From assembly GCA_965178125.1 (NCBI GenBank), contig OZ237737.1, positions 496,001-560,000 on the forward strand: a stretch of 64,000 bases of DNA, given 5' to 3'. This document shows positions 33,501 through 56,663 of the stretch, piece by piece. The notes under the pieces are model-generated. The model had not been told where the DNA came from, made no database searches, and saw only the letters and a list, made by a program, of their open reading frames with translations. Both the position numbers and the translations under genes were made by a program. The stretch is from Bilabrum cf. latius. Taxonomy: Eukaryota. The stretch's first letter is position 1, and each line of letters opens with the position of its first letter.

Positions 33501-34001
33501 GCCAGAGAGGCGCTGGCGAATTGATTTAGCTTGCTTTGCAATGACAAGCTCAGCTCCAGCCCCACTTAAATCTGGCCTGTACCCGACTTGCTCCGCTTCC
33601 AACGCTGACAGAACTGCCTTCGCAGCACCCCAAGGAACCACAGCTTCCTCCCTCAGGGTTTCTTGTTGGAACTATAAGCCTACACCACCACTCTCTGACA
33701 GCAATCCGCCCATTGCAAGCAGCCCTCTTTGCGTTCCGAACATGTCGGGATCCAGACCAATCTTGCTGCTGTCCACAGCAGGACTTGTGACCAGCCTCGT
33801 CGGCTCAGCAGAGGGCGCACCTTTCGATATTGTCGCGACCTCAAGCTATGTTTGGGCCGGCAAATGATGATATTGTAGAGCGGGAGCAGCCTGTATTTGG
33901 ACCTGCTGGAATAAGTCCGGATCGATTCCATCTTGCGTCCCCACCAGAGAGGCTAGGTCCAGCCTAGCCGATGGTGTATGCTCTTCATTTAATAAATTCA
34001 T
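27564..34001 (-). CDS. EDRF1: EDRF1 (erythroid differentiation-related factor 1)-like protein, ~2145 aa, apparently intronless, about 25 in-frame TAG
   Basis: DVVAPASALRSLFAMPVSDRPVSMAVHRVGRTIVLD; LVLGSDLLVF; YLDNLFTDVPELVVCYHDGGRIQGY; LQFLRHNCTKDCSSYWLVK. About eleven listed ORF pieces lie in one frame; I translated the larger gaps and found no TAA or TGA. Ends TAA. Confidence 0.85.
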
Positions 34002-34165
34002 GATGCCTGAAGCCCAACTAGCAAAGTTAACGTCATGGAGTCCGGGTGGATGTGATGCTTGTGCATTATATCTGATTTTGCCGCCGGCGTGCTAGTTGCG
34101 AGCACATTTCCACGTGTCCGCCAAAGGCAACTTCAAGCCTGGGCCCACATTTACAGTATCCTGAT

Positions 34166-35611
34166 ATGCCCAAGTAGCGTGGAAACAGAAAGAAAAAGAC
34201 AGGGAAACCCGATTCAGAGGCTGGCGATGCCAGCAATCCGGGAAACGCGCCTGAGTAGGTAGATGAGAAGAAGCTAAAAATGCAAGCGGAGCAGGAGGCT
34301 GCGTAGAAGCGCGTGAAGCTGCTGCTGGAGAACTATGGGAGCATGAAGAAGGCTGATAGTGATCGGGAGGCATTTTTGCTGAAAGTTGTAGAGTCTATCC
34401 GTTCTCATTCTACGGGGTTCGGCCCGGCCCTCGCTCTCGGCGAGCGAACGAAGTACTTTGGGCCAGAGCACATTTATGGCGCGATCATGTCGTCTGGGCT
34501 CGTGGATCCGAACTGGTCTGGCGAGGGAAAGGGAGAGTTGAGCCGGGAGGACGTCGCAGATTCTATTTTCATCGAGTTGCTGCGGACCATAAACTCGAAG
34601 CTGTCACCGAGAGATTTTGGCCCGCAGCGACCCAAGCAGCTAGGCGCGCGCCCATTCCTGTAGCGATTGGAGATCGCCAAGCGAGTGAAGACCGGCGCAG
34701 ATGGTCAGCCGGTCCTTAGCAAGAAAACAGGGAAACCGAAAAAGGAGGTGGTGCACGCCCCGGGCAACCTGGTCGTGCTGCAGCCGCCGCAGGACGGGTC
34801 TGACGTGTTCAAGGTCGATGATCTAGCGCGCTTTATCATCAACTACGAAGAAGATGCGTTTTGGCAGACGCTTAAGCTCGGCGCGATGGCTGTGGCTGTA
34901 TTCATTCTGCTGCTATATAGGGTGTGGCCGATGTGGATGAGGACGGGCATTTGGTACGTGTCTGTCACGTTCCTAATCGTGTTTTTCGGTTTCGTGGTCC
35001 TAAGGCACTCCCTATTCGTGGTTCTATGGGTGTTTGGCGTGGAGCTCTGGCTAATTCCTGGATTCTGGGAAGATATTTACTGGCCTCTTTACAGCCTCGA
35101 GTTCGCGCCTGGCAGGGACGTGGTGCTGAGGCTGATCATGGCGGTTGCGCTCGTGTTTGGTGGATATATGGCGTACAACTCCGACATCACGTTCGACCAC
35201 GTGCTCGAGTCGCAGCAGGAGATGGTGAGTTCTCTGTACGAAGGAAAGTTCCTCACGCAGGGAGCAGCCGAGGACCCGTTCGCTCGCACCATTCCCAGCA
35301 TCGCTGACCTCGAGAAGCAGCTGGAGGAGGAGGAGAAAGAGGAGGATGGGGGCGAAGAGGCGGCCGGCAGCGCATCGGGTGCTGCAGGGGAGTCTCCCGA
35401 TGCTGAAGGCGAGTGGGGAGGGGAGCAGGAAGGAGTGAGCCAGCCTGGGTCTGGTGGCACCAACACTGCTGACGTGGGTCCCGGCGGTGATGTGGATACC
35501 TCTCAGACTGGCGGCGACAATGACGATGACGAGGACGCTGCTCTGATGGAGGAGATGCGGAGGGTGGCCGAGGAAGAGGCAAGCGGGGAGGAGCAGCGGT
35601 ACGAGGACTGA
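34166..35611 (+). CDS. SEC62: Translocation protein Sec62; in-frame TAG at 34175, 34256, 34304, 34661
   Basis: Basic N-terminus; INYEE followed by TMs LLLYRVWPMWMRTGIWYVS...VLRHSLFVVLW...LWLIPGFWED..PLYS; acidic tail; ends TGA TGA. Confidence 0.85.
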
Positions 35612-36477
35612 TGAGGCAGCTCGTCACTGGGATTCTTTCGGTGGCTTTAGATTCAGCAGGTAGCGGGCCTCAATGGTCAAACTAAGTTCTCCGCTGGCAG
35701 GCTTGGCTGTACCTATCGCTGCGCGCGAGCTGGATGGAGCCCGCTTGGTTGATCTGAATTTACCATTCCATGCGGGACTACGCCCCATCACTCACTCCTT
35801 ATTGGATCTTTGCAGCGGAATACCAGAATGCCAGCGGGACAATACTGCAGCGGGGTAGCTGGCTGGGGGGGCTCTAATAGTTCGTGCTGTCATGCCTACG
35901 GATTTTGAAAAGATAGACCTCACTGGTGTCCTTCCACTCAGACCATGGCGGGGGTAGATCTAGCTGGCTGATGCCGCGGGTTGCGTGCAGTCTCAATTCG
36001 CCTGAATGGTCGTCCGCTATCCAAACCTAAGACGTAAAGTCGAAAATGGATCGTGTCATTGGCTAGTAACAGTGGCGTGCGGACGAAGAGGAAGGCCTGG
36101 TGATCGAAGTGAACCTTTTGCACGATGCCCCTTTCGAACGTCCTCAAGGGAATGCCATGCGGCGCCGTACAAGTAGCGCTTCATCATCATTTGCCACAAG
36201 ATGTTCGCACACGCTGTACTAAGAATGGGCCTACCACAATGATCTGTTGGGCAAAGAAACCGGTGGGGTAGCCAGGAATACCAGAATACCAGAATAATTT
36301 GTAGGGTAAAGAAATCAGGGGTAGCAGGCAAATGTAGCGTTCACATACAATTTTAATCACACTCAATCCTGCGGCGTACCTACGCATGCAATCGAAAGTC
36401 ACGCATACTCTGGCGACTCTCAGCACAAATTGGAAATAGCTCAGGAATCTATTTGAAGCTTGAGCCTTTGATCCAGA

Positions 36478-39400
36478 ATGGAAGGCTCGTCTGCTGGATG
36501 GAATGCCGTCGAAGAGGGCAGCCTCAAGATCGAAGTCAATATCGCGTACGATGCCCTTTTGAAGAAAGTCCTAAAGGGAATGCCAGAAGGCGCCACCAAA
36601 GTTCTTTTAGATCAACTGATTCCACAAGATGCCAGCGAGAGGACCAAGTTTCTGAATGATCCATGCATACGGTGGATCCAGCCGGACGACAATAATGGGA
36701 CGACAGGAGTGCGCACGATTTCGATGAATATCTTGCAATTCGCGGTAATGTGCGAAGCAAGTGTGCTCGATTGCACGCTTGCACAATGTCTGGTTTTTGC
36801 AGGGGCCGGAGTACTCGTCCCAACCTCGGTGAGTGCGTGGAAGCAGCTTTGTATCTCGATTGCGGACAATAGCCACACTATGCCATGTGCAGGTGGGACC
36901 ACCTAGCAGCCTACATTGATGCTTGCACTTTTACTGCAGGACGGACGCACAGCATTCGAGATGATGCTGACTATTCAGGGACGTTTGCACAAGCGGAGAA
37001 AGAACGAATTTCATGCTTTCTAGTATGCTGCACAGGCAGCTGCCGCCGAGGCTCGCGCTTCACCAGATGCCCAAGCACGGCTGGATCGGTCGCTGTCTCT
37101 GTCCTTGCGCAGGGCACTGGCAGTGCGCTCTACCGAGCACCTTGACATCATCTGCCGCAGCGAGGCTGCCTGCGTGGACCAGTCGTGGATCGACCCCGAT
37201 ACGGGTCGCTCGCTCGTTCACACTGCCATCGCCGCCGGATGCTGCCGCCTGGCCGTGCTGGACGAGCTCGCAATGGCGGGCTGCGACCCTCATGCTCCAG
37301 ACAAGGATGGCGACACGCCCATGCAGCTGGCCCTGAAGGCCGGCAGTGCCACGATGGTGCGCGGGCTGCTGGCGTGGGGCTGCGAGCTGCGGGCATCGAT
37401 GGCCGGGCTGGTGCCTGCGGGCGAGTCGCATGATGCGTTGCGGTCGTTCGTGTCCGATGTGGGCGATGGTGTGGGAGCGGGGGAAGTGGTGTGCGTGGAC
37501 AGCAGTGTGGCAGAGTTTGGCCGCGTGGCCGATGTGCGTCTTCCTTGGGTGGGTGGGAGTGTGGCTGGTGGTCTGGCATCTGACAGCGAAGCCCGTCTGG
37601 GCTTGATCCGGTAGCTGGTCCTGCAGCTTGGGCCAGAGCTGTGCGGGGAAGCCGCCTTGGAGGCATACATTGCCCATCGCCATACTTATGGGGGGGCCGT
37701 GCTGGCTGATCCAGGGTACGCTGGCGAGGAGGCGCTGGCCCATGCCCGCAGCGCGATCACCTCTCAGGAGGACAAGGGCCTGTCGTATACGGACGTGGTG
37801 GTCGCGTTTGAGAGCATGTGGCGTGGCATGGATTGCATCGTGGCGAGTCCGCCGACGTGTGCATCGCTCGGAGTCTCACCGGCGTAGCTGGTACCGGCGA
37901 TGGCTGACGCGTTGAAGAAGTACGGAAGCACAGAAAGTGAGGCCGAGGAAGCCGGTGACGGGCCAGACGAGGCAATGGGTAGTGGCGACGTGCAGGCCGT
38001 GCTGGTGGGCCAGATCAAGGAGATGTTTGAGTCACCCCCGTATGGCACGAAGAAGGAAGACATGCTGTAGAAGCTGCTGGACCCTGACGGCGGCAAGATG
38101 GTGAAGGAGGGCGACGACAGTTTTTCCCACGATTCTGCATACGAATGGGTGTCCAGCACGGCAGCATGGATCGCCCTCATTGCAAGTACGCGCACGCCGA
38201 TGAAGCGAGACACCAAGGCGGCCGACGGTGAGGAGCATATGGAGGCAGCTGCAGCTTCCAGGGCGGCCTCGGGCGCTGGGGCTGCTGGTGGTACTGATGT
38301 GGATGCATCCGCATCTGCATTGAGCGAGCTGGTGTTCAGTAACGCCCTACGATTGAACAAGCCGGGGAATGTGAGAATCACAGAAGATGCACGTTTTGTC
38401 TGTATTACGACACCGTGTGGCTATGTGTTCGTTGTCCAGGTTGCGTTCGTTTCCCAACAATCTCGCAGGCTGGTCGCGTGCTGCCCTTGGGCTATGCTCT
38501 GAAAAGCAGGGGCGATGACTCGTATGTATCCTTGGGCCTTCTGTCCGCTCTCGGTTGCTGCACTTCTGCTACCTTGCTTCCTGGCTATCGAAGCGTCTTG
38601 CCGACTATTGAAGCAGTTTACAGAGACGTTGGAAGTGGTATGCTGTCGCCTACCTGTGCTTCATTCTGCCATTCAGTTGACACAGGAATGGAGGTTGTGA
38701 TGTCTTTGGATGAGTGCAAGGGTCTGTTGTCGAATTGGTTCTTCATGGAGGGCCAATTGGAAGAGTCAATGCCGCTGGTTCGTTTTGCAGTTGCCGCTGC
38801 AGCGATTGTACGAGCCTACAAGACAGACGATCACATCGCAAAGGACATCGGTTAGAGGGTAGCTGCTGCAGCTGCCCGCTTGTTTGAGCGTAGTAAGGTG
38901 CCATTGGCCTTTCGCGTTGCATATGCCCGAGGCCTTGCTGTCTTCGCCGCTTCTATCGACCTGCGAGTTCAATTTCTTGTATCGGAAGACGGCGACTCTG
39001 TCCTGTGGTAGGCACATGGGCTGGACGAAGGAGCTGACGGCAGGTCTGGATCCCTTGCAGTGGAGAAGGAAGGCTTACACGCGCTGCCTGAGGTGGTGCA
39101 AACGCTGTGCGGCAAGACACACAAGTCATACGGCTCGCTACTTCGTAATCCGGATGCAGCGGGGCTCGCAAGCGTCCGAGACAACCCCAGTGGCTTCAGC
39201 ACCTTGCTAGACACGGATGCTGTCATGGAGAAGGTCGCTGATGGGCTGTGGTCCGCGGTCTCAAGTGAAGACAGCAGACTGCGGGGGCTGTGCCACGTGG
39301 ACTGTCTTGACATGACAGTGGAAAACACCGAGGACATGGCGGCAGCACTGACCTGGTGCAGCAAGCACGAGTCCTCTGGCCTGTTGGTGCAGAGCGTCGA

Positions 39401-42400
39401 CAGGTGCACGAACGGTACTGCGGCGTCCTTTCACGAGGCATGGGTCCTTGTTCGGGACATGCAGCAGTCCAGTAAAGCCACAGGCGCTCAAGCAGAGGGT
39501 GGGCAAGACGACGCAGGGAGCGGTGCAGATGGAGTCGCCGTGCCTCCCCTGTGTGCCTTGCTCATGCAGTAGACTACTTCATGGTTCCCTGAGTTCTTCG
39601 CCAGCATCAGTCTGCTGCAAGCTGGGGCGAGCCCTGTGCTAGGAGCGACGGTGAGTCAACGTAGCATACTCTTGTGCATGTATGAAAGCATATCCCTATG
39701 CCTACCTCACCCGTGGATCCACAATGTGCCAAGCATGTCCGTATCACTCGTCTGTATCGCAGGATGGAAGCTGCTCTCCTCTGTCCATCTTCGTCAAGTG
39801 CACGCGAGGAAAGTCCATGGATGCCACCATGAGGCGGCTGCCCGTGCTTGCGGCACTCGCTGATGCGGCTTGGACCCAGGGCCAGAAGGACCCTGCCGTG
39901 TGGACTGCGTGGACACAGGCCGCGGTGCAGCAGCTGAAGCTGTGCACGGACAAGGACGACGAGGCCCTGGCGGAAGTACTGCTGGACTACTCTGGCATCC
40001 TGGAGGGTCCGCTGATGCTGCTGCATCAGGCTGGCAGCGGGGTCCAGGATGAGCCAGCCAGCGGGGCAGGTGCCAGCGCTGGTGCAGGAGGTGGTGTAGC
40101 TGCTGATGTGGAGGCCCTTGTTGCATCCAGCGCTATGCTGCTTCAGGATGTGTTTGTGTGGGCATGCTCGAGCAAGAGCGTGTCGGGGCAGGTGCTGAGC
40201 AGCTTGCTGGAGCGCGGGTGCAGCCCCACAGCGCCGGGCAGCAGTGGAGAGACCCCTCTGCATGCAGCCGTGCGGGCTGGTCGTGTGCAGGCCGTTGCCG
40301 AGCTGCTTCGGAGGGGGGCGCGATTCACTCGCGGCCTTGCCACTGACTTGTGCGCAGGCGCCGATGGCGCCACGAAGACGATTGCAGAGGCCATGGCTCT
40401 GTCGTACCGCCTGCCGGACTCCACCCCGCAGTCTAGGTCTGACTTCGTGATTGACAACTTGGGCGAGCCCGTGGAGGCGATCTATGACCCCAGCAGCTGG
40501 GAATTGAGGCATGCAGGGTCAAAGATGGAATCGTGCAGATATGCGATGGTCGCCGGGATCAAGTTGCTGGACGACGACAAGAAGGCGGAGGCTGCTGCGT
40601 CGTTGAAAGCGGCCATGGCTGCTTTGCCGTCGCGTGACGCGAAAGAGGCAGGGGGCCCATGGGGTCTGGCTGTGCTGCGGGCACGCTTGTGCTCCATGGC
40701 AGCGATGGGCATCCGTGAGTGGGGCGAAGCGAGCGAGCTGGGTGTGACGGGTGATACGGAGCAGCAGGTGTCACCGCGCGACGTCCTGAGAACTATGGAG
40801 AGCATCCAGGAGAGGCATCTCAGAGCAGCTGAAGCAGTCGAGGATGTAAGCGACGAAGCTGTGAGTGGAGAAGGGGATGACTGGGTCCTCTAGATGGGCA
40901 AGCACATTCAGGTTGAAGTGCACAAGGCGCACCTGACTCTCCTCAACCATATACATCATGCTGATAGCAAAGCCGTAATAGAGGTGGCTTTGGAGCTTGA
41001 GGCACCCTAGGACCCAGTAGAGCGCAAGGTATGGCTTAACGAGCCTTGCGTGCGATGGACTGTCCCTGCTACAGCTAGCGATGTCATGGGCTCAACTGGC
41101 GAAAGCCCTGGGTTCCTCGTCCCAGGCACACAGATATGTGTCAACATGCTACAGTACGCCATCATGCACAACGCATCGGCTTGCACTGACAATGCCATTC
41201 ACGCGCTGTTGTGCGCAGGTGCAAGCGTACTAGAAGCTACGTCGGTGAGATTAACGATGCTGAAGTTGCCACAATTAGCTACTTGTTCGCGCTGCTTTCG
41301 AAGTTTTGCAATATGCACGCCTATTCTGAGCTGATTGAGACGACCACAACCGATCGCCGCGTCTTGTGTTTCTGTCCCACAATCCTCTGCAGGACGGTCG
41401 CACTGGTCTTGAGCTGTGGCTGAATGTGAGAGCACGAAAGTACGACCCTGATCCTGGGGTGTACATGACGCCACACATCTCCGAGAGGGCCGCCTCTGAG
41501 GCTTCTTGGTCCCCTGAGGCAAGGCAGCACTTAGTCAGATCTGTGTTTTCTGCAGCTGAGCGTGTGTTTGCCATCCGTTCCAATTAGCACCTGCTGCATT
41601 TCCTGGAGTACGGAGGCTGCGTTGACCCATCGTTGGTTCATCCAGATACGGGTCGCTCGCTCGTTCACACTGCCATCGCCGCCGGATGCTGCCGCCTGGC
41701 CGTGCTGGACGAGCTCGCAATGGCGGGCTGCGACCCTCATGCTTCCGACAAGGATGGCGACACGCCCATGCAGCTGGCCCTGAAGGCCGGCAGTGCCACG
41801 ATGGTGCGCGGGCTGCTGGCGTGGGGCTGCGAGCTGCGGGCATCGATGGCCGGGCTGGTGCCTGCGGGCGAGTCGCATGATGCGTTGCGGTCGTTCGTGT
41901 CCGATGTGGGCGATGGTGTGGGAGCGGGGGAAGTGGTGTGCGTGGACAGCAGTGTGGCAGAGTTTGGCCGCGTGGCCGATGTGCGTCTTCCTTGGGTGGG
42001 TGGGAGTGTGGCTGGTGGTCTGGCATCTGACAGCGAAGCCCGTCTGGGCTTGATCCGGTAGCTGGTCCTGCAGCTTGGGCCAGTGCTGTGCGGGGAAGCC
42101 GCCTTGGAGGCACAAATCTGCAGGGATGACTACATATCTGGCGCCTTTCATGGCACGGACGAGTACATTGGCTATGAATAGTACAATGAAGCGCAGCTGC
42201 TGGCTGCAGGGCGCGAGAAGATGAGTTACTCGCACGCCATCATTGTTTATGAATGCCTTGCTGGCACCCCTGAGCGGGCTCGAGTGCAGCGTGGAGGTGT
42301 CGAAACACGTCCGGCTGAGCTTGCAAGTTAGTTGACCTAGTATCTCTCGGAAAGCAAAGGCCTTAAGGGCTTTGAGAGCCTTAGAACATCCATCGTTGGG

Positions 42401-45400
42401 CGGCTCTCAGCTGAGCCAGAGCTGCTGCAGAAACTGAAAGACTCGCTTTCTCCGCGAGAGGGTTCTGAGACGCAGTACGGGCAGCTGTCCGATACCGCTC
42501 TTCTGGTCGCACTGGTAGGTACACCTCCCCCGCAGGACATCGATGGCAGTGCTGGAACGGAAGCTATCCCGTCGGGACCAAATCATCAAAACAACGTGTA
42601 TGGGTGGGCCAATCGGCTCAGCATGCGGGATGAAGTAAGATACGCAACGATCTTCTGCAACACGGTATCAAATTGTACAAAGTGCCCCCAGTGACATCTT
42701 CGAGCCAACGATCCCAAGCTTCGTTCAATTTCCCCCTGCTTAATTTATCGTTTCATCCGCAGAATGGTTGTTCGGCACTAGGCTATGCCCTTGGTATGCT
42801 GGACGATCGCAACGACTCCAACACAGCAGTCGATCTGCTAGTTGCCCTAGGATGTTGCGTGTCGAGCACAAATATCAGCTACTATGGCACTGCCAGCAGC
42901 GTAGCAGCGTTCATCTTGGACTCTGAGCAGGTTCGCGGCTGCTATCCCACCCGCTGTACGCTACTTGCTACAGCTCGAGCAAGCGTTGAAGCCAGCATTG
43001 CCGCGGCTGGCGATGGCGACGGGGCGGCAGACAATGCAAGCAGCGCCACGTCGAGCTCTGACAAACAGCTTGATCTTGCCGTGGTAGACGGTACAAAGCG
43101 GCGTGGGGAGGTCTTTATCCGGAGTTTGTTCTCGTACTATTCTGTTCACCGTGGGATCGCCTTGGCGGCGGCCTGGTGTCGACACCCACATGATGATCCG
43201 CAGCCAAGACCTGAGCTGGTGGCGACAGCTGCCGCCCGCGTGTTCCAAGACGATGATGCCACTGCGGCTGATCGTCTCAGGGCAGCCAGAGCTATTTGGG
43301 TGTTGGGCTAGCTATCTCCTGAACGAATCCAGTTCAATATGTCTGATGGCGGTGGCGAGCTGCTATGGACCGCGAGGGGACTGGCAGATGGAGCTGACGG
43401 CAGCTCAGGCGCTGTTGAAGAGGACAAGGAACGCCTGCGCGCGCTGCAAGAGGTCAGGCAAACGCTATGCGATGGCACGCCTCATCATGAGCTGCATGCA
43501 GATCTGACTACCAATGATGCGGGCGCGGACATGCCCAAACGGCCTTGCACCCTGCTGCAAAGCAGTATCGCGGGGAAACTCTTGGCTCCAATACAAAGCG
43601 GAGTCATGAAAGCGAGCGACGATGACGCGAGGCAGCACGAGGCTCTCAAGCGTCTCTGTGTCCTGAGAGTGCTGTCCGGGTCCGTCAAGTGGAAGGACAC
43701 TATGATCCAGAGCATTGTCGGTGCTGTGAGAAGCAACGAGGCTCGTGCAATTCAAGGACACGTTACCAAACTAGTCGAGTGTGGATAGGAGCTCCTGTCG
43801 CGACCGTGGATTTGCCTGAAAATCCCTGCTGCCAACCATGCAGAGCAGCTCGCGGCTGTTGGCGCCGCAATAGGCGATCCATCATTCACTGTCATCGCTG
43901 CCTCGCCGTTGTGCGCCCTCCTGCAAAGCACGGTTCAGGTTCAATCAACGAATTCATGCTTAGCGAGCATTATGCTTTTGCAAGCTGGTGCCAGCCCCGT
44001 CTATAGTTCAGAGGTGAGACTGCCGTTGTACTTGTGTGTGTTGTCACTTTTCTGTGATTCCATTTGCCACTGTACTTTTCGCGTTTCAAAGCCCTCACTA
44101 TTATGCAGGATGGCAGCATTACGCCCTTGTCTATTCTTGTGGGCTAGCTACACGAGGGTCCTTTCAGTCGTGATCGATCCAGCTTGCTTAACGACCCATT
44201 GCTACTCCTTGCGGCACTCGCTGATGCGGCTTGGACCCAGGGCCAGAAGGACCCTGCCGTGTGGACTGCGTGGACACAGGCCGTGGTGCAGCAGCTGAAG
44301 CTGTGCACGAAGCACACCAAGGGCGACGAGCTGGTAGTTGAGCTGCTGCTGGACTACTCTGGCATCCTGGAGGGCTCGCTGATGCTGCTGCAGCAGGCTG
44401 GCAGCGGGGTCCAGGATGGGCCAGCCAGCGGGGCAGGTGCCAGCGCTGGTGCTGGAGGTGGTGTAGCTGCTGATGTGGAGGCCCTTGTTGCATCCAGCGC
44501 TATGCTGCTTCAGGATGTGTTTGTATGGGCATGCTCGAGCAAGAGCGTGTCGGGGCAGGTGCTGAGCAGCTTGCTGGAGCGCGGGTGCAGCCCCACAGCG
44601 CCGGGCAGCGATGGAGAGACCCCTCTGCGTGCAGCCGTGCGGGCTGGTCGGCTTGCGGCCGTGATCGAGTTGCTGAAGCGCGGCGTGAAGCTCAGTAGGC
44701 TGCACGTAGCAAGTTATATTGCAGCCGATGGCAGGCTTCCCAAAGTTGCCGATGTTTTGGAAAGGGTGACCCTTGAGGGGGATACCACTGCAGAAGCGCA
44801 GCTATCAGCAATTAGGGCTGAGCTCGAGGCCGAGATAGATGCTGAGACACCCAAGCGAGGGGTGGTTGACAGATTCGACTGGCCTGTAGCGTGGAATGCA
44901 GGGCGGGCGGACTTCGTGACTGCTTTGTCCATGGCCGACATGAAAACGTGGCGAGACAAGGCAGTCAAGAGCCTCTTGGAGTCTGGTGAGCTTGCTGAGA
45001 AGCAGTTCCAGGATTCAAGTGAGTGGAAACTGCTCTGTGTGAGGCGAGGCGTTTTGCTTCGCGCCGCATCGAATGTGTGGGGGCAGCCCGAGCTGTGGAA
45101 GACAGATGGTGCGGATGCGTCTTCCCTGATCCATGCTATCGAGCATGCGACTGGAAGCATACAGGCACATCTTGGGCATCTAGCTGAAAGCGCAGCGGCG
45201 TCAGAGGCGAAGGCTGTAGAGGAGGAGGCAGAGGCAGCCAGGCGCAAGGCCGCTGAGGAGGAGCAGCAAGAGGCAGCCAGGCGCAAGGCCGCTGAGCAAG
45301 AGGCAGAGGCAGCCAGGCGCAAGGCCGCTGAGGAGCAGCAGCAAGAGGCAGCCAGGCGCAAGGCCGCTGAGGAGGAGCAGCAAGAGGCAGCCAGGCGCAA

Positions 45401-46736
45401 GGCCGCTGAGGAGGAGCAGCAAGAGGCAGCCAGGCGCAAGGCCGCTGAGGAGGAGCAGCAAGAGGCAGCCAGGCGCAAGGCCGCTGAGGAGCAGCAGCAA
45501 GAGGCAGCCAGGCGCAAGGCCGCTGAGGAGGAGCAGCAAGAGGCAGCCAGGCGCAAGGCCGCTGAGGAGCAGCAGCAAGAGGCAGCCAGGCGCAAGGCCG
45601 CTGAGGAGCAGCAGCAAGAGGCAGCCAGGCGCAAGGCCGCTGAGGAGGAGCAGCAAGAGGCAGCCAGGCGCAAGGCCGCTGAGGAGGAGCAGCAAGAGGC
45701 AGCCAGGCGCAAGGCCGCTGAGGAGGAGCAGCAAGAGGCAGCCAGGCGCAAGGCCGCTGAGGAGGAGCAGCAAGAGGCAGCCAGGCGCAAGGCTGCTGAG
45801 GAGGAGCAGCAAGAGGCAGCCAGGCGCAAGGCTGCTGAGGAGGAGCAGCAAGAGGCAGCCAGGCGCAAGGCCGCTGAGGAGCAGCAGCAAGAGGCAGCCA
45901 GGCGCAAGGCCGCTGAGGAAGAGCAGCAAGAGGCAGCCAGGCGCAAGGCCGCTGAGGAGGAGCAGCAAGAGGCAGCCAGGCGCAAGGCCGCTGAGGAGGA
46001 GCAGCAAGAGGCAGCCAGGCGCAAGGCTGCTGAGGAGGAGCAGCAAGAGGCAGCCAGGCGCAAGGCCGCTGAGGAGCAGCAGCAAGAGGCAGCCAGGCGC
46101 AAGGCCGCTGAGGAGGAGCAGCAAGAGGCAGCCAGGCGCAAGGCCGCTGAGGAGGAGCAGCAAGAGGCAGCCAGGCGCAAGGCCGCTGAGGAGCAGCAGC
46201 AAGAGGCAGCCAGGCGCAAGGCCGCTGAGGAGGAGCAGCAAGAGGCAGCCAGGCGCAAGGCCGCTGAGGAGCAGCAGCAAGAGGCAGCCAGGCGCAAGGC
46301 CGCTGAGGAGCAGCAGCAAGAGGCAGCCAGGCGCAAGGCCGCTGAGGAGGAGCAGCAAGAGGCAGCCAGGCGCAAGGCCGCTGAGGAGGAGCAGCAAGAG
46401 GCAGCCAGGCGCAAGGCCGCTGAGGAGGAGCAGCAAGAGGCAGCCAGGCGCAAGGCCGCTGAGGAAGAGCAGCAAGAGGCAGCCAGGCGCAAGGCCGCTG
46501 AGGAGGAGCAGCAAGAGGCAGCCAGGCGCAAGGCCGCTGAGGAGGAGGAAGATGGCGATGACGTCCTAGGCTCTGGGGCTGCAGCCGCAGCGTTAGACGC
46601 CTAGAGGATGCGATCCACCAAGGACAGTTCCAAGAGCCGTCCGCGACGCCGTGCGCCAGCCGCACATGGTCGGGACTGGTCTCAGTCGTCCAATGGTGGG
46701 GGGAGCAGCCCTGGTGGATTCTGTACTATCTCGTGA
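36478..46736 (+). CDS. Giant ankyrin-repeat protein, copy A (~3190 aa): two internal modules, long charged helical repeat, C-terminal CaaX (CTIS); introns 36829-36939, 38371-38468, 39651-39762, 41245-41392, 42635-42762, 44014-44108
   Basis: Ankyrin motifs GRSLVHTAIAAG, DKDGDTPMQLALKAG, GETPLHAAVRAGRVQAVAELLRRGA. Six phase-0 GT-AG introns join all pieces in frame once about 18 TAGs are read through. Ends GGFCTIS-TGA. Confidence 0.78.
45231..46550 (+). repeat. 39-bp coding minisatellite, ~34 copies (EAARRKAAEEEQQ)
   Basis: gaggcagccaggcgcaaggccgctgaggaggagcagcaa in tandem; one unit is 36 bp. Confidence 0.95.
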
Positions 46737-47313
46737 GATTGGTGATCCCACTGGGCCACGGCCCTTTATCACGTGTGCTGAAGCTTCAATAAGGCTAGTA
46801 TCCATTGGTTGATCCGATAGTTATGGTTGTGGCTCTGTCCGTCCAGGGAGCGCATTCCACGCTTAGCCCAACTAGAGGGCTATCAGAATTTCCAGACCCC
46901 TCAGGGGGTAGGCACAGGGACTGAGCCTTCTAAGCCAGAACAGTGACGCAGGGGTAGATCTAGACGTCTACCACCTTTTTGAGGCGAAACCCTGTGCCTC
47001 CAATCGGACACCAGTTCGTAGGCCAACCTGGACGCTGGGATGCACTCAGCCGGTGGTGTATGGGCCTGTCAAGGCTGAAACCACCCACACAACACCGATT
47101 CGAAACGGACAGGGTCATGCTGCCCGTTCTGTTCAAACCCTAAAGAAACCGGTGGGGTAGCAGGCCAATGTAGCGTTCACATACAATTTTAATCACACTC
47201 AATCCTGCGGCGTACCTACGCACGCAATCAAAAGTCACGCATACTCTGCCGACTCTCCGCACAAATTGGAAATAGCTCAGGAATCTATTTGAAGCTTGAG
47301 CCTTTGATCCAGA

Positions 47314-50300
47314 ATGGAAGGCTCGTCTGCTGGATGGAATGCCGTCGAAGAGGGCAGCCTCAAGATCGAAGTCAATATCGCGTACGATGCCCTTTTGAAG
47401 AAAGTCCTAAAGGGAATGCCAGAAGGCGCCACCAAAGTTCTTTTAGATCAACTGATTCCACAAGATGCCAGCGAGAGGACCAAGTTTCTGAATGATCCAT
47501 GCATACGGTGGATCCAGCCGGACGACAATAATGGGACGACAGGAGTGCGCACGATTTCGATGAATATCTTGCAATTCGCGGTAATGTGCGAAGCAAGTGT
47601 GCTCGATTGCACGCTTGCACAATGTCTGGTTTTTGCAGGGGCCGGAGTACTCGTCCCAACCTCGGTGAGTGCGTGGAAGCAGCTTTGTATCTCGATTGCG
47701 GACAATAGCCACACTATGCCATGTGCAGGTGGGACCACCTAGCAGCCTACATTGATGCTTGCACTTTTACTGCAGGACGGACGCACAGCATTCGAGATGA
47801 TGCTGACTATTCAGGGACGTTTGCACAAGCGGAGAAAGAACGAATTTCATGCTTTCTAGTATGCTGCACAGGCAGCTGCCGCCGAGGCTCGCGCTTCACC
47901 AGATGCCCAAGCACGGCTGGATCGGTCGCTGTCTCTGTCCTTGCGCAGGGCACTGGCAGTGCGCTCTACCGAGTACCTTGACATCATCTGCCGCAGCGAG
48001 GCTGCCTGCGTGGACCAGTCGTGGATCGACCCCGATACGGGTCGCTCGCTCGTTCACACTGCCATCGCCGCCGGATGCTTCCGCCTGGCCGTGCTGGACG
48101 AGCTCGCAATGGCGGGCTGCGACCCTCATGCTCCCGACAAGGATGGCGACACGCCCATGCAGCTGGCCCTGAAGGCCGGCAGTGCCACGATGGTGCGCGG
48201 GCTGCTGGCGTGGGGCTGCGAGCTGCGGGCATCGATGGCCGGGCTGGTGCCTGCGGGCGAGTCGCATGATGCGTTGCGGTCGTTCGTGTCCGATGTGGGC
48301 GATGGTGTGGGAGCGGGGGAAGTGGTGTGCGTGGACAGCAGTGTGGCAGAGTTTGGCCGCGTGGCCGATGTGCGTCTTCCTTGGGTGGGTGGGAGTGTGG
48401 CTGGTGGTCTGGCATCTGACAGCGAAGCCCGTCTGGGCTTGATCCGGTAGCTGGTCCTGCAGCTTGGGCCAGAGCTGTGCGGGGAAGCCGCCTTGGAGGC
48501 ATACATTGCCCATCGCCATACTTATGGGGGGGCTGTGCTGGCTGATCCAGGGTACGCTGGCGAGGAGGCGCTGGCCCATGCCCGCAGCGCGATCACCTCT
48601 CAGGAGGACAAGGGCCTGTCGTATACGGACGTGGTGGTCGCGTTTGAGAGCATGTGGCGTGGCATGGATTGCATCGCGGCGAGTCCGCCGACGTGTGCAT
48701 CGCTCGGAGTCTCACCGGCGTAGCTGGTACCGGCGATGGCTGACGCGTTGAAGAAGTACGGAAGCACAGAAGGTCAGGCCGAGGAAGCCGGTGACGGGCC
48801 AGACGAGGCAATGGGTAGTGGCGACGTGCAGGCCGTGCTGGTGGGCCAGATCAAGGAGATGTTCGAGTCACCCCCGTATGGCACGAAGAGGGAAGACATG
48901 CTGTAGAAGCTGCTGGACCCTGACGGCGGCAAGATGGTGAAGGAGGGCGACGACAGCTTTTCCCACGATTCTGCATACGAATGGGTGTCCAGCACGGCAG
49001 CATGGATCGCCCTCATTGCAAGTACGCGCACGCCGATGAAGCGAGACACCAAGGCGGCCGACGGTGAGGAGCATATGGAGGCAGCTGCAGCTTCCAGGGC
49101 GGCCTCGGGCGCTGGGGCTGCTGGTGGTACTGATGTGGATGCATCCGCATCTGCGTTGAGCGAGCTGGTGTTCAGTAACGCCCTACGATTGAACAAGCCG
49201 GGGAATGTGAGAATCACAGAAGATGCACGTTTTGTCTGTATTACGACACCGTGTGGCTATGTGTTCGTTGTCCAGGTTGTGTTCGTTTCCCAACAATTTC
49301 GCAGGCTGGTCGCGTGCTGCCCTTGGGCTATGCTCTGAAAAGCAGGGGCGATGACTCGTATGTATCCTTGGGCCTTCTGTCCGCTCTCGGTTGCTGCACT
49401 TCTGCTACCTTGCTTCCTGGCTATCGAAGCGTCTTGCCGACTATTGAAGCAGTTTACAGAGACGTTGGAAGTGGTATGCTGTCGCCTACCTGTGCTTCAT
49501 TCTGCCATTCAGTTGACACAGGAATGGAGGTTGTGATGTCTTTGGATGAGTGCAAGGGTCTGTTGTCGAATTGGTTCTTCATGGAGGGCCAATTGGAAGA
49601 GTCAATGCCGCTGGTTCGTTTTGCAGTTGCCGCTGCAGCGATTGTACGAGCCTACAAGACAGACGATCACATCGCAAAGGACATCGGTTAGAGGGTAGCT
49701 GCTGCAGCTGCCCGCTTGTTTGAGCGTAGTAAGGTGCCATTGGCCTTTCGCGTTGCATATGCCCGAGGCCTTGCTGTCTTCGCCGCTTCTATCGACCTGC
49801 GAGTTCAATTTCTTGTATCGGAAGACGGCGACTCTGTCCTGTGGTAGGCACATGGGCTGGACGAAGGAGCTGACGGCAGGTCTGGATCCCTTGCAGTGGA
49901 GAAGGAAGGCTTACACGCGCTGCCTGAGGTGGTGCAAACGCTGTGCGGCAAGACACACAAGTCATACGGCTCGCTACTTCGTAATCCGGATGCAGCGGGG
50001 CTCGCAAGCGTCCGAGACAACCCCAGTGGCTTCAGCACCTTGCTAGACACGGATGCTGTCATGGAGAAGGTCGCTGATGGGCTGTGGTCCGCGGTCTCAA
50101 GTGAAGACAGCAGACTGCGGGGGCTGTGCCACGTGGACTGTCTTGACATGACAGTGGAAAACACCGAGGACATGGCGGCAGCACTGACCTGGTGCAGCAA
50201 GCACGAGTCCTCTGGCCTGTTGGTGCAGAGCGTCGACAGGTGCACGAACGGTACTGCGGCGTCCTTTCACGAGGCATGGGTCCTTGTTCGGGACATGCAG

Positions 50301-53300
50301 CAATCCAGTAAAGCCACAGGCGCTCAAGCAGAGGGCGGGCAAGACGACGTAGGGAGCGGTGCAGATGGAGTCGCCGTGCCTCCCCTGTGTGCCTTGCTCA
50401 TGCAGTAGACTACTTCATGGTTCCCTGAGTTCTTCGCCAGCATCAGTCTGCTGCAAGCTGGGGCGAGCCCTGTGCTAGGAGCGACGGTGAGTCAACGTAG
50501 CATACTCTTGTGCATGTATGAAAGCATATCCCTGTGCCCACCTCACCTGTGGATCCGCAATGTGCCAAGCATGTCCGTATCACTCGTCTGTATCGCAGGA
50601 TGGAAGCTGCTCTCCTCTGTCCATCTTCGTCAAGTGCACGCGAGGAAAGTCCATGGATGCCACCATGAGGCGGCTGCCCGTGCTTGCGGCACTCGCTGAT
50701 GCGGCTTGGACCCAGGGCCAGAAGGACCCTGCCGTGTGGACTGCGTGGACACAGGCCGTGATGCAGCAGCTGAAGTTGTGCACGGACAAGGACGACGAGG
50801 CCCTGGCGGAAGTACTGCTGGACTACTCTGGCATCCTGGAGGGCTCGCTGATGCTGCTGCATCAGGCTGGCAGCAGGGTCCAGGATGAGCCAGCCAGCGG
50901 GGCAGGTGCCAGCGCTGGTGCAGGAGGTGGTGTAGCTGCTGATGTGGAGGCCCTTGTTGCATCCAGCGCTATGCTGCTTCAGGATGTGTTTGTGTGGGCA
51001 TGCTCGAGCAAGAGCGTGTCGGGGCAGGTGCTGAGCAGCTTGCTGGAGCGCGGGTGCAGCCCCACAGCGCCGGGCAGCAAGGGAGAGACCCCTCTGCATG
51101 CAGCCGTGCGGGCTGGTCGTGTGCAGGCCGTTGCCGAGCTGCTTCGGAGGGGGGCGCGATTCACTCGCGGCCTTGCCACTGACTTGTGCGCAGGCGCCGA
51201 TGGTGTCACGAAGACGATTGCAGAGGCCATGGCTCTGTCGTACCGCCTGCCGGACTCTACCCCGCAGTCTAGGTCTAACTTCGTGATTGACAACTTGGGC
51301 GAGCCCGTGGAGGCGATCTATGACCCCAGCAGCTGGGAATTGAGGCATGCAGGGTCAAAGATGGAATCGTGCAGATATGCGATGGTCGCCGGGATCAAGT
51401 TGCTGGACGACGACAAGAAGGCGGAGGCTGTTGCGTCATTGAAAGCTGCCATGGCTGCTTTGCCGTCGCGTGACGCGAAAGAGGCAGGGGGCCCAGGGGG
51501 TCTGGCTGTGCTGCGGGCACGCTTGTGCTCCATGGCAGCGATGGGCATCCGTGAGTGGGGCGAAGCGAGCGAGCTGGGTGTGACGGGTGATACGGAGCAG
51601 CAGGTGTCACCGCGCGACGTCCTGAGAACTATGGAGAGCATCCAGGAGAGGCATCTCAGAGCAGCTGAAGCAGTCGAGGATGTAAGCGACGAAGCTGTGA
51701 GTGGAGAAGGGGATGACTGGGTCCTCTAGATGGGCAAGCACATTCAGGTTGAAGTGCACAAGGCGCACCTGACTCTCCTCAACCATATACATCATGCTGA
51801 TAGCAAAGCCGTAATAGAGGTGGCTTTGGAGCTTGAGGCACCCTAGGACCCAGTAGAGCGCAAGGTATGGCTTAACGAGCCTTGCGTGCGATGGACTGTC
51901 CCTGCTACAGCTAGCGATGTCATGGGCTCAACTGGCGAAAGCCCTGGGTTCCTCGTCCCAGGCACTCAGATATGTGTCAACATGCTACAGTACGCCATCA
52001 TGCACAACGCGTCGGCTTGCACTGACAATGCCATTCACGCGCTGTTGTGCGCAGGTGCAAGCGTACTAGAAGCTACGTCGGTGAGATTAACGATGCTGAA
52101 GTTGCCACAATTAGCTACTTGTTCGCGCTGCTTTCGAAGTTTTTGCAATATGCACGCCTATTCTGAGCTGATTGAGACGACCACAACCGATCGCCGCGTC
52201 TTGTGTTTCTGTCCCACAATCCTCTGCAGGACGGTCGCACTGGTCTTGAGCTGTGGCTGAATGTGAGAGCACGAAAGTATGGGACAGTTATTGCCAGGTA
52301 CGTCACCCCGCATATTTCCGAGCGGGCGGCAATTGAAGCCTCGGAGTGTCCAGAGGCAAGGCAGCGCTTAGTCAGATCTGTGTTTTCTGCAGCTGAGCGT
52401 GTGTTTGCCATCCGTTCCAATTAGCACCTGCTGCATTTTCTTGTGTACGGAGGCTGCGTTGACCCATCGTTGGTTCATCCAGATACAGGTCGCTCGCTCG
52501 TTCACACTGCCATCGCCGCCGGATGCTGCCGCCTGGCCGTGCTGGACGAGCTCGCAATGGCGGGCTGCGACCCTCATGCTCCCGACAAGGATGGCGACAC
52601 GCCCATGCAGCTGGCCCTGAAGGCCGGCAGTGCCACGATGGTGCGCGGGCTGCTGGCGTGGGGCTGCGAGCTGCGGGCATCGATGGCCGGGCTGGTGCCT
52701 GCGGGCGAGTCGCATGATGCGTTGCGGTCGTTCGTGTCCGATGTGGGCGATGGTGTGGGAGCGGGGGAAGTGGTGTGCGTGGACAGCAGTGTGGCAGAGT
52801 TTGGCCGCGTGGCCGATGTGCGTCTTCCTTGGGTGGGTGGGAGTGTGGCTGGTGGTCTGGCATCTGACAGCGAAGCCCGTCTGGGCTTGATCCGGTAGCT
52901 GGTCCTGCAGCTTGGGCCAGAGCTGTGCGGGGAAGCCGCCTTGGAGGCATATATGACTCAGCAGCATTCGTTTGCGGGTGGCATGCTCGTTGCAACCGAG
53001 TACATTGGCTGGGATCAGTACGCTGATGCACTGCGGAAGGCTGCGGAAGGTAAGGGCATGCACTTCTCGCATGCTGTCATAGTTCATGAGTGCCTTGCTG
53101 GTGGCATTCAGAAGTCCATGGTGCAGCCCCGTCTTCAGCGAGTATCAATTGGAAAAGCCGCACTTGCAAACCAGCTTGGGTTGTTACTCTAGGGGCAGCA
53201 AGGGGACAACCACAGTGATGACACCGTTGGGGCCCTCAGTAACTCAATTCGAGGGAGGTTGCGAGTAGAGCCTAAGCTTTTGGAAATGTGTAGGGGTTCA

Positions 53301-56300
53301 TGCAATCCACAGCAAGATAAGGACCCGGTTTATGCACAACTAGCCGACACGGCTCTTCTGGTCGCTCTAGTTAGTACATCACCCCCTTAGGAAAGCGCTA
53401 CCAGTGCCCTTGAAGCAGTTGCGCAGGGATAGGCCAGCAGCCCAGGTCTAAGTGAGGCACAGAATAATGTTATCAGCTGGGCGAAGCGTCTCTGCATGCG
53501 GGATAGTGTAAGATAGGATTAGCCTCGGAGTTCAGGCACAGCGCTATGCGTTGCTGTTTGGACGGGGTGCCGCGCATTACTTTACCTTGTGCGAGTGTGT
53601 GTACGTATGCTGCATTTTATCTGTCCCGCAGGATGGCTGCTCCGCTTTGGGTTACGTTGTAGGCGAGGCAGGTGGTCAAGGTAATGCGAATTCAGCTATC
53701 GACTTGCTTGTAGCGTTGGGTTGCTGCGTATCAAGCACGCAGGTATACCATCGCGGTGAAACGTTCAGCGCAATCGAGGCCGTAACAGCCTCGCATGAAA
53801 CACGCAGTTGCTACCCAACTCGTGCTAGTTTTGTGCAGACAGCCCGAGAGAGCCTTGAAGCGAACAGTGATCCACTTGCCAGTGGGTCAAGTGCTGCTGG
53901 TGCTGCGGGAGATGCCAGCCCGATGAATTTAGCCTCTGTAGAGAAGCCCACGTGGCTCAACTTCTGTACTAGCTTGGCAGTAGATAATGTTGTTCACCGT
54001 GCCATCGCCGTGGCCGCTGGCTGGCACCGCTACCCAGACGGTGAACCAGAGGCGAGGTCCGCTGAAGTTACGAAGATGGCCGCCAGGGCCTTCGAAGAGA
54101 GTGAGGCTCCAACAGCTGTTCGATTAAAGGTAGCTCAAGCTGCCTGGCTGCTGGGAAGCTTGATGCCGGACCAGATCCACTTCAGTGTGTCCAAGGATTG
54201 TAACTCGCTGCTGTGGAGTGCCAAAGGGCCGGATGATGGAGCTGCTGGCAGCTCCGGCGCCCTCGAAGTTGACAAAGAATGCCTGCACGCCCTACCTGAG
54301 GTGGTACAAACGCTGTGCGGTGGTCGGCCTGCCCTACCACAGGCAGACTAGGCTACTGACCCAAAGCAGCGTCCTTGCACTTTGCTGCGAAGTGAAATTG
54401 CTGAAAATCTACTGGCTCCGATCCGAAACGGTGAGATGTAGGCGAACGAAGACGACCACTATCAAATGTAGGCCCTAAAGTATCTGTGTTCCATGAAGCT
54501 GTTGTCGACACACGTTGAGCGTCCTGTCGGAGTGGTCGAGAATATTACGAAAACAGTTGACTCTTCAGCCGGACGCGAATTACGTTCGCAAGTTGGCAAG
54601 ATGTTAGCAGCCGGAGAGACTCTACTTCACGATGCATGGGTACGTGTGAAGGCACCTACCGTTGACCACGCAGCGGTGAGCGCCGGTGCCCGTGCCGCTG
54701 CAAGTGGTTCTGCATCTAACCCAGATGCTGAAATTGCCGTTCCCCCAGTCTGCGCCCTCATGCTTCAAAGCGGTGCTGATGGCTCAGAATTCCCTGACCT
54801 CGCTAGCATTGTACTTTTGTTGTACGGCGCAAGCCCGGTCTAGGGGTCCGAGGTAAGTCGAGTTTCGCACTCATGTTAACATTTATTTCTCTACTTTGCA
54901 GAGCTTACACTAAATGCACAATATTATTTCACATATTTCGCAGGATAGCACTTGTACGCCCCTCTCTGTGCTCGTGCAGTAGATTCGCGCTGGATCTATA
55001 GATCGAAGAATGCGTACGGAGCCGCATCTCCGCAGTTCACTCCTTGCGGCACTTGCTGATGCGGCTTGGACCCAGGGCCAGAAGGACCCTGCCGTGTGGA
55101 CTGCGTGGACACAGGCCGTGATGCAGCAGCTGAAGCTGTGCACGTAGCACACCAAGGGCGACGAGCTGGTAGTTGAGCTGCTGCTGGACTACTCTGGCAT
55201 CCTGGAGGGTCCGCTGATGCTGCTGCATCAGGCTGGCAGCGGGATCCAGGATGAGCCAGCCAGCGGGGCAGGTGCCAGCGCTGGTGCTGGAGGTGGTGTA
55301 GCTGCTGATGTGGAGGCCCTTGTTGCATCCAGCGCTATGCTGCTTCAGGATGTGTTTGTGTGGGCATGCTCGAGCAAGAGCGTGTCGGGGCAGGTGCTGA
55401 GCAGCTTGCTGGAGCGCGGGTGCAGCCCCACAGCGCCGGGCAGCAGTGGAGAGACCCCTCTGCGTGCAGCCGTGCGGGCTGGTCGGCTTGCGGCCGTGAT
55501 CGAGTTGCTGAAGCGCGGCGTGAAGCTCAGTAGGCTGCACGTAGCAAGTTATATTGCAGCCGATGGCAGGCTTCCCAAAGTTGCCGATGTTTTGGAAAGG
55601 GTGACCCTTGAGGAGGAGACCACTGCAGAAGCGCAGCTATCAGCAATTAGGGCTGAGCTCGAGGCCGAGATAGATGCTGAGACACCCAAGCTAGGGGTAA
55701 TTGACGAATACGACTGGCCTGCAGCGTGGAATGCAGGGCGCGCGGACTTTGTGACTGTTTTGTCCATGGCCGACATGAAAACGTGGCGAGACAAGGCAGT
55801 CAAGAGCCTCTAGGAGTCTGGCGAGCTTGCTGAGAAGCAGTTCCAGGATTCAGGCGAGTGGAAACTGCTCTGTGTGAGGCGAGGCGTTTTGCTTCGCGCC
55901 GCATCGAATGTGTGGGGGCAGCCCGAGCTGTGGAAGACAGATGGTGCGGATGCGTCTTCCCTGATCCATGCTATCGAGCATGCGACTGGAAGCATACAGG
56001 CACATCTTGGGCATCTAGCTGAAAGTGCAGCGGCGTCAGAGGCGAAGGCTGTAGAGGAGGAGGCAGAGGCAGCCAGGCGCAAGGCCGCTGAGGAGGAGGC
56101 AGAGGCAGCCAGGCGCAAGGCCGCTGAGGAGGAGGCAGAGGCAGCCAGGCGCAAGGCCGCTGAGGAGGAGGCAGAGGCAGCCAGGCGCAAGGCCGCTGAG
56201 GAGGAGGCAGAGGCAGCCAGGCGCAAGGCCGCTGAGGAGGAGGCAGAGGCAGCCAGGCGCAAGGCCGCTGATGAGGAGGAAGATGGCGATGACGTCCTAG

Positions 56301-56467
56301 GCTCTGGGGCTGTGGCCGTAGCGTCAGACGCCTAGAGGATGCGATACACCAAGGATAGTTCCAAGAGCCGTCCACGACCCCGTGGGCCAGCCGCACATGG
56401 TCGGGACTAGTCTCAGTCGTCCAATGGTGGGGGGAGCAGCTCTGGTGGATTCTGTACTATCTCGTGA
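47314..56467 (+). CDS. Giant ankyrin-repeat protein, copy B (~2800 aa), tandem paralog of copy A; introns 47665-47775, 49207-49304, 50487-50598, 52081-52229, 53508-53631, 54853-54943
   Basis: Same exon structure and the same CTIS-TGA end. The 5' half is nearly identical to copy A at an offset of 10836 bp. Confidence 0.78.
56066..56281 (+). repeat. 36-bp coding minisatellite, 6 copies (EAARRKAAEEEA)
   Basis: gaggcagccaggcgcaaggccgctgaggaggaggca in tandem. Confidence 0.95.
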
Positions 56468-56663
56468 GACGGGTGATCCCACTGGGCCACGGTCCTTTAT
56501 CACGTGTGCTAGAATTTGATTAAAGATTTAATAGATAGTCCATTTGTTGGTTGACACAAATTGACAGTCTTGGTTGTGGCCAACTTGTTGAACTTGAGGG
56601 AACCTTCGAGAAGTCCGACCCAGTTTCCGTTCGTCACTGGCAGTCCACTGGTGCACCACAGAC

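Follow-up and report, generated by a model that had tools for sequence, protein, structure and literature searches.

Organization of the Locus

The stretch of contig OZ237737.1 analyzed here (positions 496,001 to 560,000, assembly GCA_965178125.1, from Bilabrum cf. latius; 64,000 nucleotides in all, hereafter the window, whose own numbering is used throughout) contains two giant genes in tandem on the forward strand, designated A and B. Each copy is a single open gene when six introns are removed and TAG is read as a sense codon. Contigs from four public sequencing runs were placed on copy B, and those of run X5 located its introns, the positions in gene A following by homology. The contigs of run X5 omit six GT..AG-bounded segments of 91-149 bases each, as in spliced transcripts, and in these spliced contigs all 16 of the 16 in-frame stop triplets that follow the ATG are TAG, the only two TGA lying upstream of it; the other two frames of the spliced gene B sequence contain 51 and 88 TGA. 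An earlier sequence-only reading of the window had delimited the locus at 36478 and 56467, and these are exactly the ATG of gene A and the TGA of gene B.

Each copy consists of two units of about 4.4 kb, in which a cassette X, a divergent block V, and a cassette Y follow one another (Table 1; numerals denote the unit and letters the gene). Outside X and Y the two halves of a gene are unalignable as DNA (25-50% identity in 100-column MAFFT windows), but each unit has three introns in homologous places, every one of which directly precedes a degenerate "DG-T-L" ankyrin-like motif, and the intron positions are homologous across V1, V2A, and V2B.

Copies A and B match by self-BLAST at 98.52% identity over 5811 columns (36307-42112 versus 47141-52949) and again at 96.49% over 1252 columns (44204-45455 versus 55039-56278). 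In the global alignment, identity is 99.2% over 36478-41243, a stretch of 4.8 kb that includes introns, 99.4% over X2 (41617-42112), 51.1% over 42113-44203, 97.5% over Y2, and 96.9% over the tail; the low-identity block is limited to 42113-44203 in A and 52950-55038 in B. With the patch of intermediate divergence that adjoins X2 on its left, identity in successive segments is 99, 84, 99, 51, and 97%, a mosaic. Similarity gives way to divergence exactly where X ends on the right (42112/52949), and it returns at 44204, no more than 4 bp from the left edge of Y at 44208. Because the patch starts exactly at exon 5, the segment that has not been homogenized between the genes extends from 41392 to Y, with X as an island inside it, and it is for this reason that the visible switch points fall on cassette edges.

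The architecture described by the sequence-only reading is confirmed by these comparisons. It had described A and B as nearly identical on both flanks, and the self-BLAST limits agree within a few bases; the abrupt divergence that it placed between them (42113-44200 versus 52950-55035) is the block of 51.1% identity; and its four near-identical copies of cassettes of ~470 and ~440 bp, coinciding with both switch points, are recovered by four-way alignment, the coincidence being exact on the right side of X and good to 4 bp on the left side of Y. The sliding-window identity check that it had proposed (MAFFT, global alignment) gives breakpoints at the cassettes and not uniform divergence. The frame, motifs, and intron positions are also kept between the copies as it had stated, provided that TAG is a sense codon, a condition absent from that reading.

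Table 1. Coordinates of the features of the tandem locus in the window

Feature	Position	Strand	Evidence or comparison
Duplicated segment, copy A	36307-46782	+	BLAST limits of A/B similarity
Gene A coding region; 3188 codons, 18 in-frame TAG, stop TGA	36478-46736	+	Introns by homology with gene B, GT..AG ends, open frame
Gene A exons	36478-36827, 36939-38370, 38469-39649, 39762-41243, 41392-42634, 42763-44013, 44109-46736	+	
Cassette X, copy 1A (468-bp core); ankyrin pair and ~90 further residues, GC 0.677	37198-37665	+	Four-way alignment, Pfam Ank_2/Ank
Block V1, gene A	37666-39846	+	Twin in gene B 48502-50682; 99% amino acid identity, dS 0.012 (Nei-Gojobori)
Cassette Y, copy 1A; one or two ankyrin repeats, Ank 26.0 and Ank_3 24.4 bits	39847-40283	+	BLAST, four-way alignment, Pfam
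Patch adjoining X2 on the left, intermediate divergence, 225 bp	41392-41616	+	Counterpart 52229-52453; 84.4% identity, dS 0.41
Cassette X, copy 2A	41645-42112	+	BLAST, four-way alignment
Block V2A, part apparently escaping homogenization	42113-44207	+	51% DNA and 43% amino acid identity to V2B; fragments P0013 (84%), P0016 (87%)
Cassette Y, copy 2A	44208-44650	+	BLAST, four-way alignment
39-bp tandem array, gene A; 34.2 copies, 13-residue E/Q/A/R/K repeat	45219-46547	+	
Last four codons, C-T-I-S, after a basic stretch (...GGFCTIS-stop), gene A	46722-46733	+	Same in gene B, 56453-56464
Spacer between copies A and B, 358 bp, unique	46783-47140	.	No match elsewhere in the window
Duplicated segment, copy B	47141-56514	+	BLAST limits of A/B similarity
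Gene B coding region; 2822 codons, 23 in-frame TAG, no TAA, single TGA at end	47314-56467	+	Six GT..AG joints, run X5 contigs
Gene B exons	47314-47663, 47775-49206, 49305-50485, 50598-52079, 52229-53507, 53632-54850 (or -54852), 54942 (or 54944)-56467	+	
Cassette X, copy 1B	48034-48501	+	BLAST, four-way alignment
Cassette Y, copy 1B	50683-51119	+	BLAST, four-way alignment
Cassette X, copy 2B	52482-52949	+	BLAST, four-way alignment; run X1 contig over 52482-52920 at depth 165
Block V2B	52950-55042	+	Run X1 contig 52922-55084 with 0 differences; spliced run X5 contig; fragments P0012, P0015, P0017, P0018 (78%)
Cassette Y, copy 2B	55043-55485	+	BLAST, four-way alignment
36-bp tandem array, gene B; 6.8 copies, 12-residue repeat	56040-56283	+	

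Recombination among the Cassettes

The four copies of X (468 bp) contain 5 differences in total, all of them singletons, and the adjoining DNA is unalignable between units. The four copies of Y, which are about 437-443 bp long, contain all three possible 2|2 partitions inside 437 bp: the copies are grouped by gene at 39925, crosswise at 40008, 40009, and 40244, and by unit at 39949-39978, 40086, and 40262. Recombination among the four copies is therefore required. The 44 differences between A and B in the 5061 bp outside V2 are clustered (dispersion index 1.85, p = 0.005), and the longest identical run there is 1005 bp (p = 0.001), both probabilities being based on 5000 random placements. The GC content is 0.677 in X and 0.66 in Y (0.66-0.68 across the cassettes) as against 0.54-0.58 in the V blocks, an enrichment that is compatible with biased gene conversion but not specific to it.

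When the Y1 frame (412 amino acids) was compared with longer proteins, the only matches were 11 ankyrin proteins of a generic kind, with 6-30% query coverage. In a contig of run X8 (organism D) with a depth of 3.2, positions 50290-50694, comprising the end of V1 and crossing a confirmed intron, are joined to 55055-55212 (joint 50694->55055), so that the Y cassette after V1 carries a Y2-type sub-block; either Y1 has been converted by Y2 in this organism or it has a gene with a single unit. The run covers 16 of 30 bins, and its gaps do not signify absence. A separate observation concerns 55256-55290, 35 bases from the Gly/Ala-rich part of Y, which is the sole stretch shared with contigs from three runs that have unrelated sequence on both sides; this looks like low-complexity similarity to other loci.

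Age and Relatives of the V Blocks

Three classes of silent divergence can be distinguished between A and B, with synonymous substitutions per site (dS) of ~0.01, 0.4, and ~2 or more, and three age layers are present within 3 kb. By segment, dS is 0-0.022 in exons 1-4, 0.008 in X2, and 0.036 in Y2 plus the tail, compared with 0.41 in the 75 codons of the patch to the left of X2. For V2A versus V2B, a Nei-Gojobori comparison of 610 codons gives 0.52 nonsynonymous substitutions per site (dN) and a proportion of silent differences (pS) of 0.695, which is saturated, corresponding to a dS of ~2 and a dN/dS of ~0.27; the three V sequences are too few for a site-wise analysis of dN/dS.

When 1,835,955,588 representative proteins were searched with a profile built from the three V types, 5 proteins matched at an expectation value (E) <= 0.001, all of them short fragments, and no fourth V type was found among these representatives. 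The related fragments, P0012-P0018, come from ENA and Logan contigs of 1.1-2.2 kb and sort by block. P0012, P0015, P0017, and P0018 have 78% identity to V2B and 35-46% to V2A, P0013 and P0016 have 84-87% identity to V2A and 46-47% to V2B, and P0014 has 81-82% identity to V1; two of the fragments read into introns, which are in the same places as in this locus. The V1 blocks of A and B are 99% alike as compared with 81-82% to P0014, so that the paralogs here are far closer to each other than to the orthologous fragments. Because each type is conserved at 78-87% elsewhere, all three V types appear to be old and stable. Within the window, there is no case of the same V block in two positions or genes.

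These results do not bear out the description of the blocks as hypervariable in the sequence-only reading, since silent sites are saturated, there are three types only, and the orthologous fragments are conserved at 78-87%. Nor did the dN/dS check that it had suggested for the variable block disclose an excess of amino acid change, the value being ~0.27.

Representation of the Locus in Sequencing Runs

In run X1, contig depth is ~75-82 in the parts shared by A and B, 32.5 in V2B, 165 in X, and 130 in Y. A second contig of this run, at a depth of 46.8, departs from X at its right edge, touches copy B only at 53344-53386, and rejoins it at 55039; the V2A counterpart of this island is identical to it at 35 of 43 positions, and the contig is best read as V2A. 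Both V2A and V2B are present in the same runs. The depth of X, 165 in comparison with ~80 for parts in two copies and 32-47 for parts in one, fits four X copies and hence no donor archive, although depths of this kind are a rough guide. One contig of the same run covers the spacer, continues into copy B, and extends 103 bases past the left end of the compared stretch.

Run X6 (organism C) contains a first-unit contig of 3.6 kb with 25 differences in 3605 bp and also contigs for Y2 plus the tail. The organism C contig at 47154 is preceded not by the spacer but by the upstream sequence of copy A, found at 36288. This organism may carry a single copy, but with a depth of 2-4 the data are too thin for a decision; the run has no contigs over the spacer or over 51727-54816, and such gaps are not equivalent to absence.

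TAG as a Sense Codon

Across the whole window, TAG is a sense codon. When only TAA and TGA are taken as stops, frames of 2306, 1578, 1397, and 1075 codons are obtained, holding 28, 7, 9, and 2 TAG, respectively, and nearly every gene of the window has in-frame TAG (for example, those at 27567-34484, 6289-11022, 14377-18567, and 60925-62676 on the minus strand and 22210-23631 on the plus strand). The frames read in this way include an EDRF1-like gene, Sec62, a deoxynucleoside kinase, and an OTU protease. In ~13,000 codons, with gene A left out as a near-duplicate, there are 80 TAG and 0 TAA, as compared with ~24 TAA expected from the CAA/CAG ratio of 0.30 if TAA were also sense; it should be noted that the absence of TAA is partly circular because most frames were found by requiring it. 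Genes end with TGA in 10 of 12 cases and with TAA in 2 of 12.

TAG probably encodes glutamine, as a best guess and not a proof. Residues near TAG are twofold enriched for Gln, and the TAG neighborhood profile matches that of Gln best, with r = 0.73 (the next is 0.37). Comparison with solved homologs is mixed: TAG corresponds to Pro, Gln (one), and Ser in human deoxycytidine kinase, to Gln in OTUD3, and to Thr in OTUD1. The window contains no tRNA genes and hence no sign of a suppressor tRNA. For its glycerol-3-phosphate dehydrogenase, the nearest named relatives are from stramenopiles, with 60% identity to Cafeteria and 51-54% to oomycetes, and a full-text literature search found no report of nuclear TAG reassignment in that group. 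Reassignment of TAG only is described as known in a fornicate and a rhizarian (PMC5304391).

Since the genes are intact only with TAG translated, annotation with the standard code will shatter them, here and in related fragment data. This is the larger practical point to emerge from the locus, and the genetic code of the lineage merits a check. Among the neighboring genes, that at 27567-34484 on the minus strand is apparently intronless (2306 codons, 28 TAG) and carries the N-terminal domain of EDRF1 (E = 3.8e-30); at its 3' end it overlaps with a long plus-strand frame, 24022-28461, if TAA at 27247 is read through. In the minus-strand OTU protease gene at 60925-62676, the region 61300-61400 encodes 14 Gly-Ala dipeptides from a dinucleotide-like repeat.

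Protein Features

In gene B, exon 4 (Y1B) matches Pfam Ank with 27.4 bits (cut-off 21.1) and Ank_3 with 28.3 bits (22.3), and in exon 5 one copy of X matches Ank_2 with 27.8 bits versus a cut-off of 27.3, the other copies falling just below it. These ankyrin matches are weak, score close to the curated cut-offs, and occur only in X and Y, about one-tenth of the protein. The V blocks match no Pfam family and have no relatives beyond the fragments among the 1.84 billion representatives. The designation of the pair as giant ankyrin genes in the sequence-only reading accordingly fits only loosely. No Pfam match to NACHT or NB-ARC was found at E <= 1 in 9 exon translations. An AlphaFold prediction for exon 6 of V2B, made with 9 sequences, has a mean predicted local distance difference test score of 32.6 with no residue above 50 and gives no usable fold; a language-model look-up with a TAG-free segment of V2B (239 residues) produced ankyrin clusters only at 0.88, which is below the trust level and serves as a lead only.

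The tandem arrays near the 3' ends encode what appears to be a long single helix, and the stalks of A and B would differ in length by ~360 residues. Both proteins end in C-T-I-S, which we take, from general motif rules, to be a CaaX-like prenylation signal, and this suggests a predicted lipid (prenyl) anchor. Judged from these features, A and B are probably scaffolds with sparse ankyrin repeats, orphan domains, and a charged helical stalk of very unequal length; the scaffold would be tethered to the membrane, with one of its domains existing in two versions.

Origin of the Mosaic

The mosaic of identities, the three age classes, the recombination signal in the cassettes, and the occurrence of both V2 types elsewhere are direct observations, and gene conversion would be the mechanism behind them, the order of events and the cause of escape (lost homology and/or selection) being read from the pattern. 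It seems reasonably probable that A and B are old tandem paralogs subject to repeated, patchy, GC-biased gene conversion. The genes would encode lineage-restricted giant proteins, each having arisen by internal duplication of a unit of ~1,290 codons. Conversion, with or without unequal exchange, would homogenize most of gene A and gene B and would also homogenize X and Y across all four units, the two cassettes acting as self-sustaining islands of homology; because conversion tracts end with homology, such islands would be sharp-edged. The segment from the start of exon 5 to Y (41392-44207/52229-55042, minus the X island) would have escaped and preserved an ancient split between A and B, either because divergence had become too great for tracts to cross or because of selection for two versions, or both. 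The sequence-only reading had proposed that exchange at conserved cassettes swaps variable segments in a diversifying recognition or defense family. Exchange at the cassettes stands, as a nonreciprocal process, on the near-identity of X in saturated surroundings, the partitions in Y, the clustered differences, and the GC content of the cassettes, whereas the swapping and the diversifying family do not, given old V types, a dN/dS of ~0.27, and no archive.

Several points weigh against concerted evolution of old paralogs. Fragments P0012-P0018 could represent a second divergent haplotype or subgenome and not other species, which weakens the argument from orthologs, and concerted evolution of X itself across organisms could not be shown, a search with the X reading frame against proteins of 86-275 amino acids having returned no match at E <= 1e-10. 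Other family members or donors are excluded only by contig depth, which is a rough guide and not a copy number, and the 2:1:1 ratio of depths is also expected from two alleles. Contigs built from k-mers cannot bridge the 468-bp X or Y, and it is the assembly that assigns each V2 block to its gene; run X1 may moreover be the sample from which the window was assembled. Finally, run X5, from which the intron evidence derives, is labeled "RNA? (probably DNA)."

A recent duplication of the whole gene, followed by a single replacement of V2 from a divergent allele or paralog, would give a similar arrangement, as would unequal crossing-over between long-lived and very different alleles, the exchange in either case having occurred in or beside the cassettes. 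The 99.2% similarity of A and B over 4.8 kb, introns included, is readily accommodated by such a history, as are block edges located exactly on X and Y and the contigs of organism C for the first unit and for Y2 plus the tail, in which the left flank is that of copy A. It is nevertheless doubtful, because the three rather than two silent age classes and the clustering of differences mean that several events are needed anyway, the depth of X corresponds to only four copies without a visible present-day donor, and both V2 types are found elsewhere at 78-87%, hence are old and stable; the allelic version also requires a polymorphism kept across lineages.

That the genes belong to a diversifying recognition or defense family, in which recombination at the cassettes shuffles hypervariable blocks, is improbable. 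Ankyrin repeats are common among recognition proteins, conserved cassettes do border divergent blocks with recombination among the cassettes, and the joint 50694->55055 in run X8 (depth 3.2) indicates that cassette content differs between organisms. However, that contig represents conversion of a cassette, with Y2-type content in Y1, and not a V swap. The dN/dS of ~0.27 with saturated silent sites, the three block types, each 78-87% conserved, in 1.84 billion representatives, and the four units indicated by depth with no V block in two contexts are all contrary to it, and Pfam scans found no NACHT, NB-ARC, TIR, or other defense-type domain.

An assembly artifact, in which two haplotypes of one gene have been placed in tandem or V blocks in the wrong X-Y slots, is unlikely, and we consider it the least credible of these alternatives. 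A heterozygous locus would likewise show flanks that are identical, a single block that is very different, and depths of 2:1:1, and X and Y exceed short-read k-mers, but a single run X1 contig holds both the unique 358-bp spacer and the beginning of copy B, the arrays at the 3' ends consist of 34.2 units of 39 bp in one gene and 6.8 units of 36 bp in the other, and both V2 types recur in other data. The window is also without N, and its 1.3-kb array at 97% identity is resolved, as long-read assemblies do. A history in which an ancestral gene of three units lost different ones through X-X and Y-Y recombination is rejected because A and B differ in the patch to the left of X2 (dS 0.41).

Returning to concerted evolution, a wider reading can be offered only tentatively: selection, and not just lost homology, may keep V2A and V2B apart, such that A and B would represent two specificities of one scaffold, lineage-restricted and lipid-anchored, with stalks of ~34 versus 7 repeats setting very different distances from the membrane and with X and Y binding common partners, in a protist host (whose nearest named relatives by one housekeeping gene are stramenopiles) that would read TAG, apparently not TAA, as glutamine.

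Comparison with Known Systems

As an instance of concerted evolution, the locus is clear but ordinary. It adds a clean new example, from an orphan gene pair, to a process already known and opens no new kind of diversity-generating system. Its value is that of an unusually clean natural case of where gene conversion stops, useful for the study of conversion tract length, homology threshold, and GC bias in a protist of which little is known. Conserved flanks, divergent cassettes, and gene conversion as the engine are features of the VSG mosaics of trypanosomes, of vlsE in Borrelia, and of msp2 in Anaplasma, and the present locus resembles these in having conserved flanks around divergent blocks, and conversion; it differs from them in having no donor archive, three block types, old blocks under purifying selection, and no visible expression-site logic. 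The NLR-type proteins of fungi have internal ANK, TPR, or WD repeats that are highly conserved and evolve in concert, and the likeness to them lies in ankyrin-bearing units that are near-identical in DNA within one gene. In contrast to those proteins, however, no nucleotide-binding domain was found here in Pfam scans, the homogenized unit is a cassette of ~150 residues and not a single 33-residue repeat, and the nearest named relatives of the organism by one housekeeping gene are stramenopiles, not fungi. With ankyrin-repeat proteins generally (PF00023, PF12796, PF13606), the locus shares matches above the cut-offs in Y and once in X, and a degenerate "DG-T-L" motif that starts every exon, but repeats are recognized in only about one-tenth of the protein and the V blocks belong to no Pfam family.

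The tandem arrays of Trypanosoma brucei, in which duplicates undergo concerted evolution and some regions escape conversion (Jackson 2007, PMC1855330), are similar. There, too, tandem paralogs are closer within a genome than to orthologs, with affinities that conflict by region, and homogenization and differentiation are found side by side in a single locus whose duplicates are set apart by structural heterogeneity (PMC1855330). Compared with those arrays, the genes of the present locus are giant (8.5-9.6 kb coding) and internally duplicated, homogenization also acts between the halves of a gene but only at two sub-exonic cassettes of ~450 bp, and the contrast is extreme, with 5 differences in 468 bp adjoining saturated DNA in the same exon.

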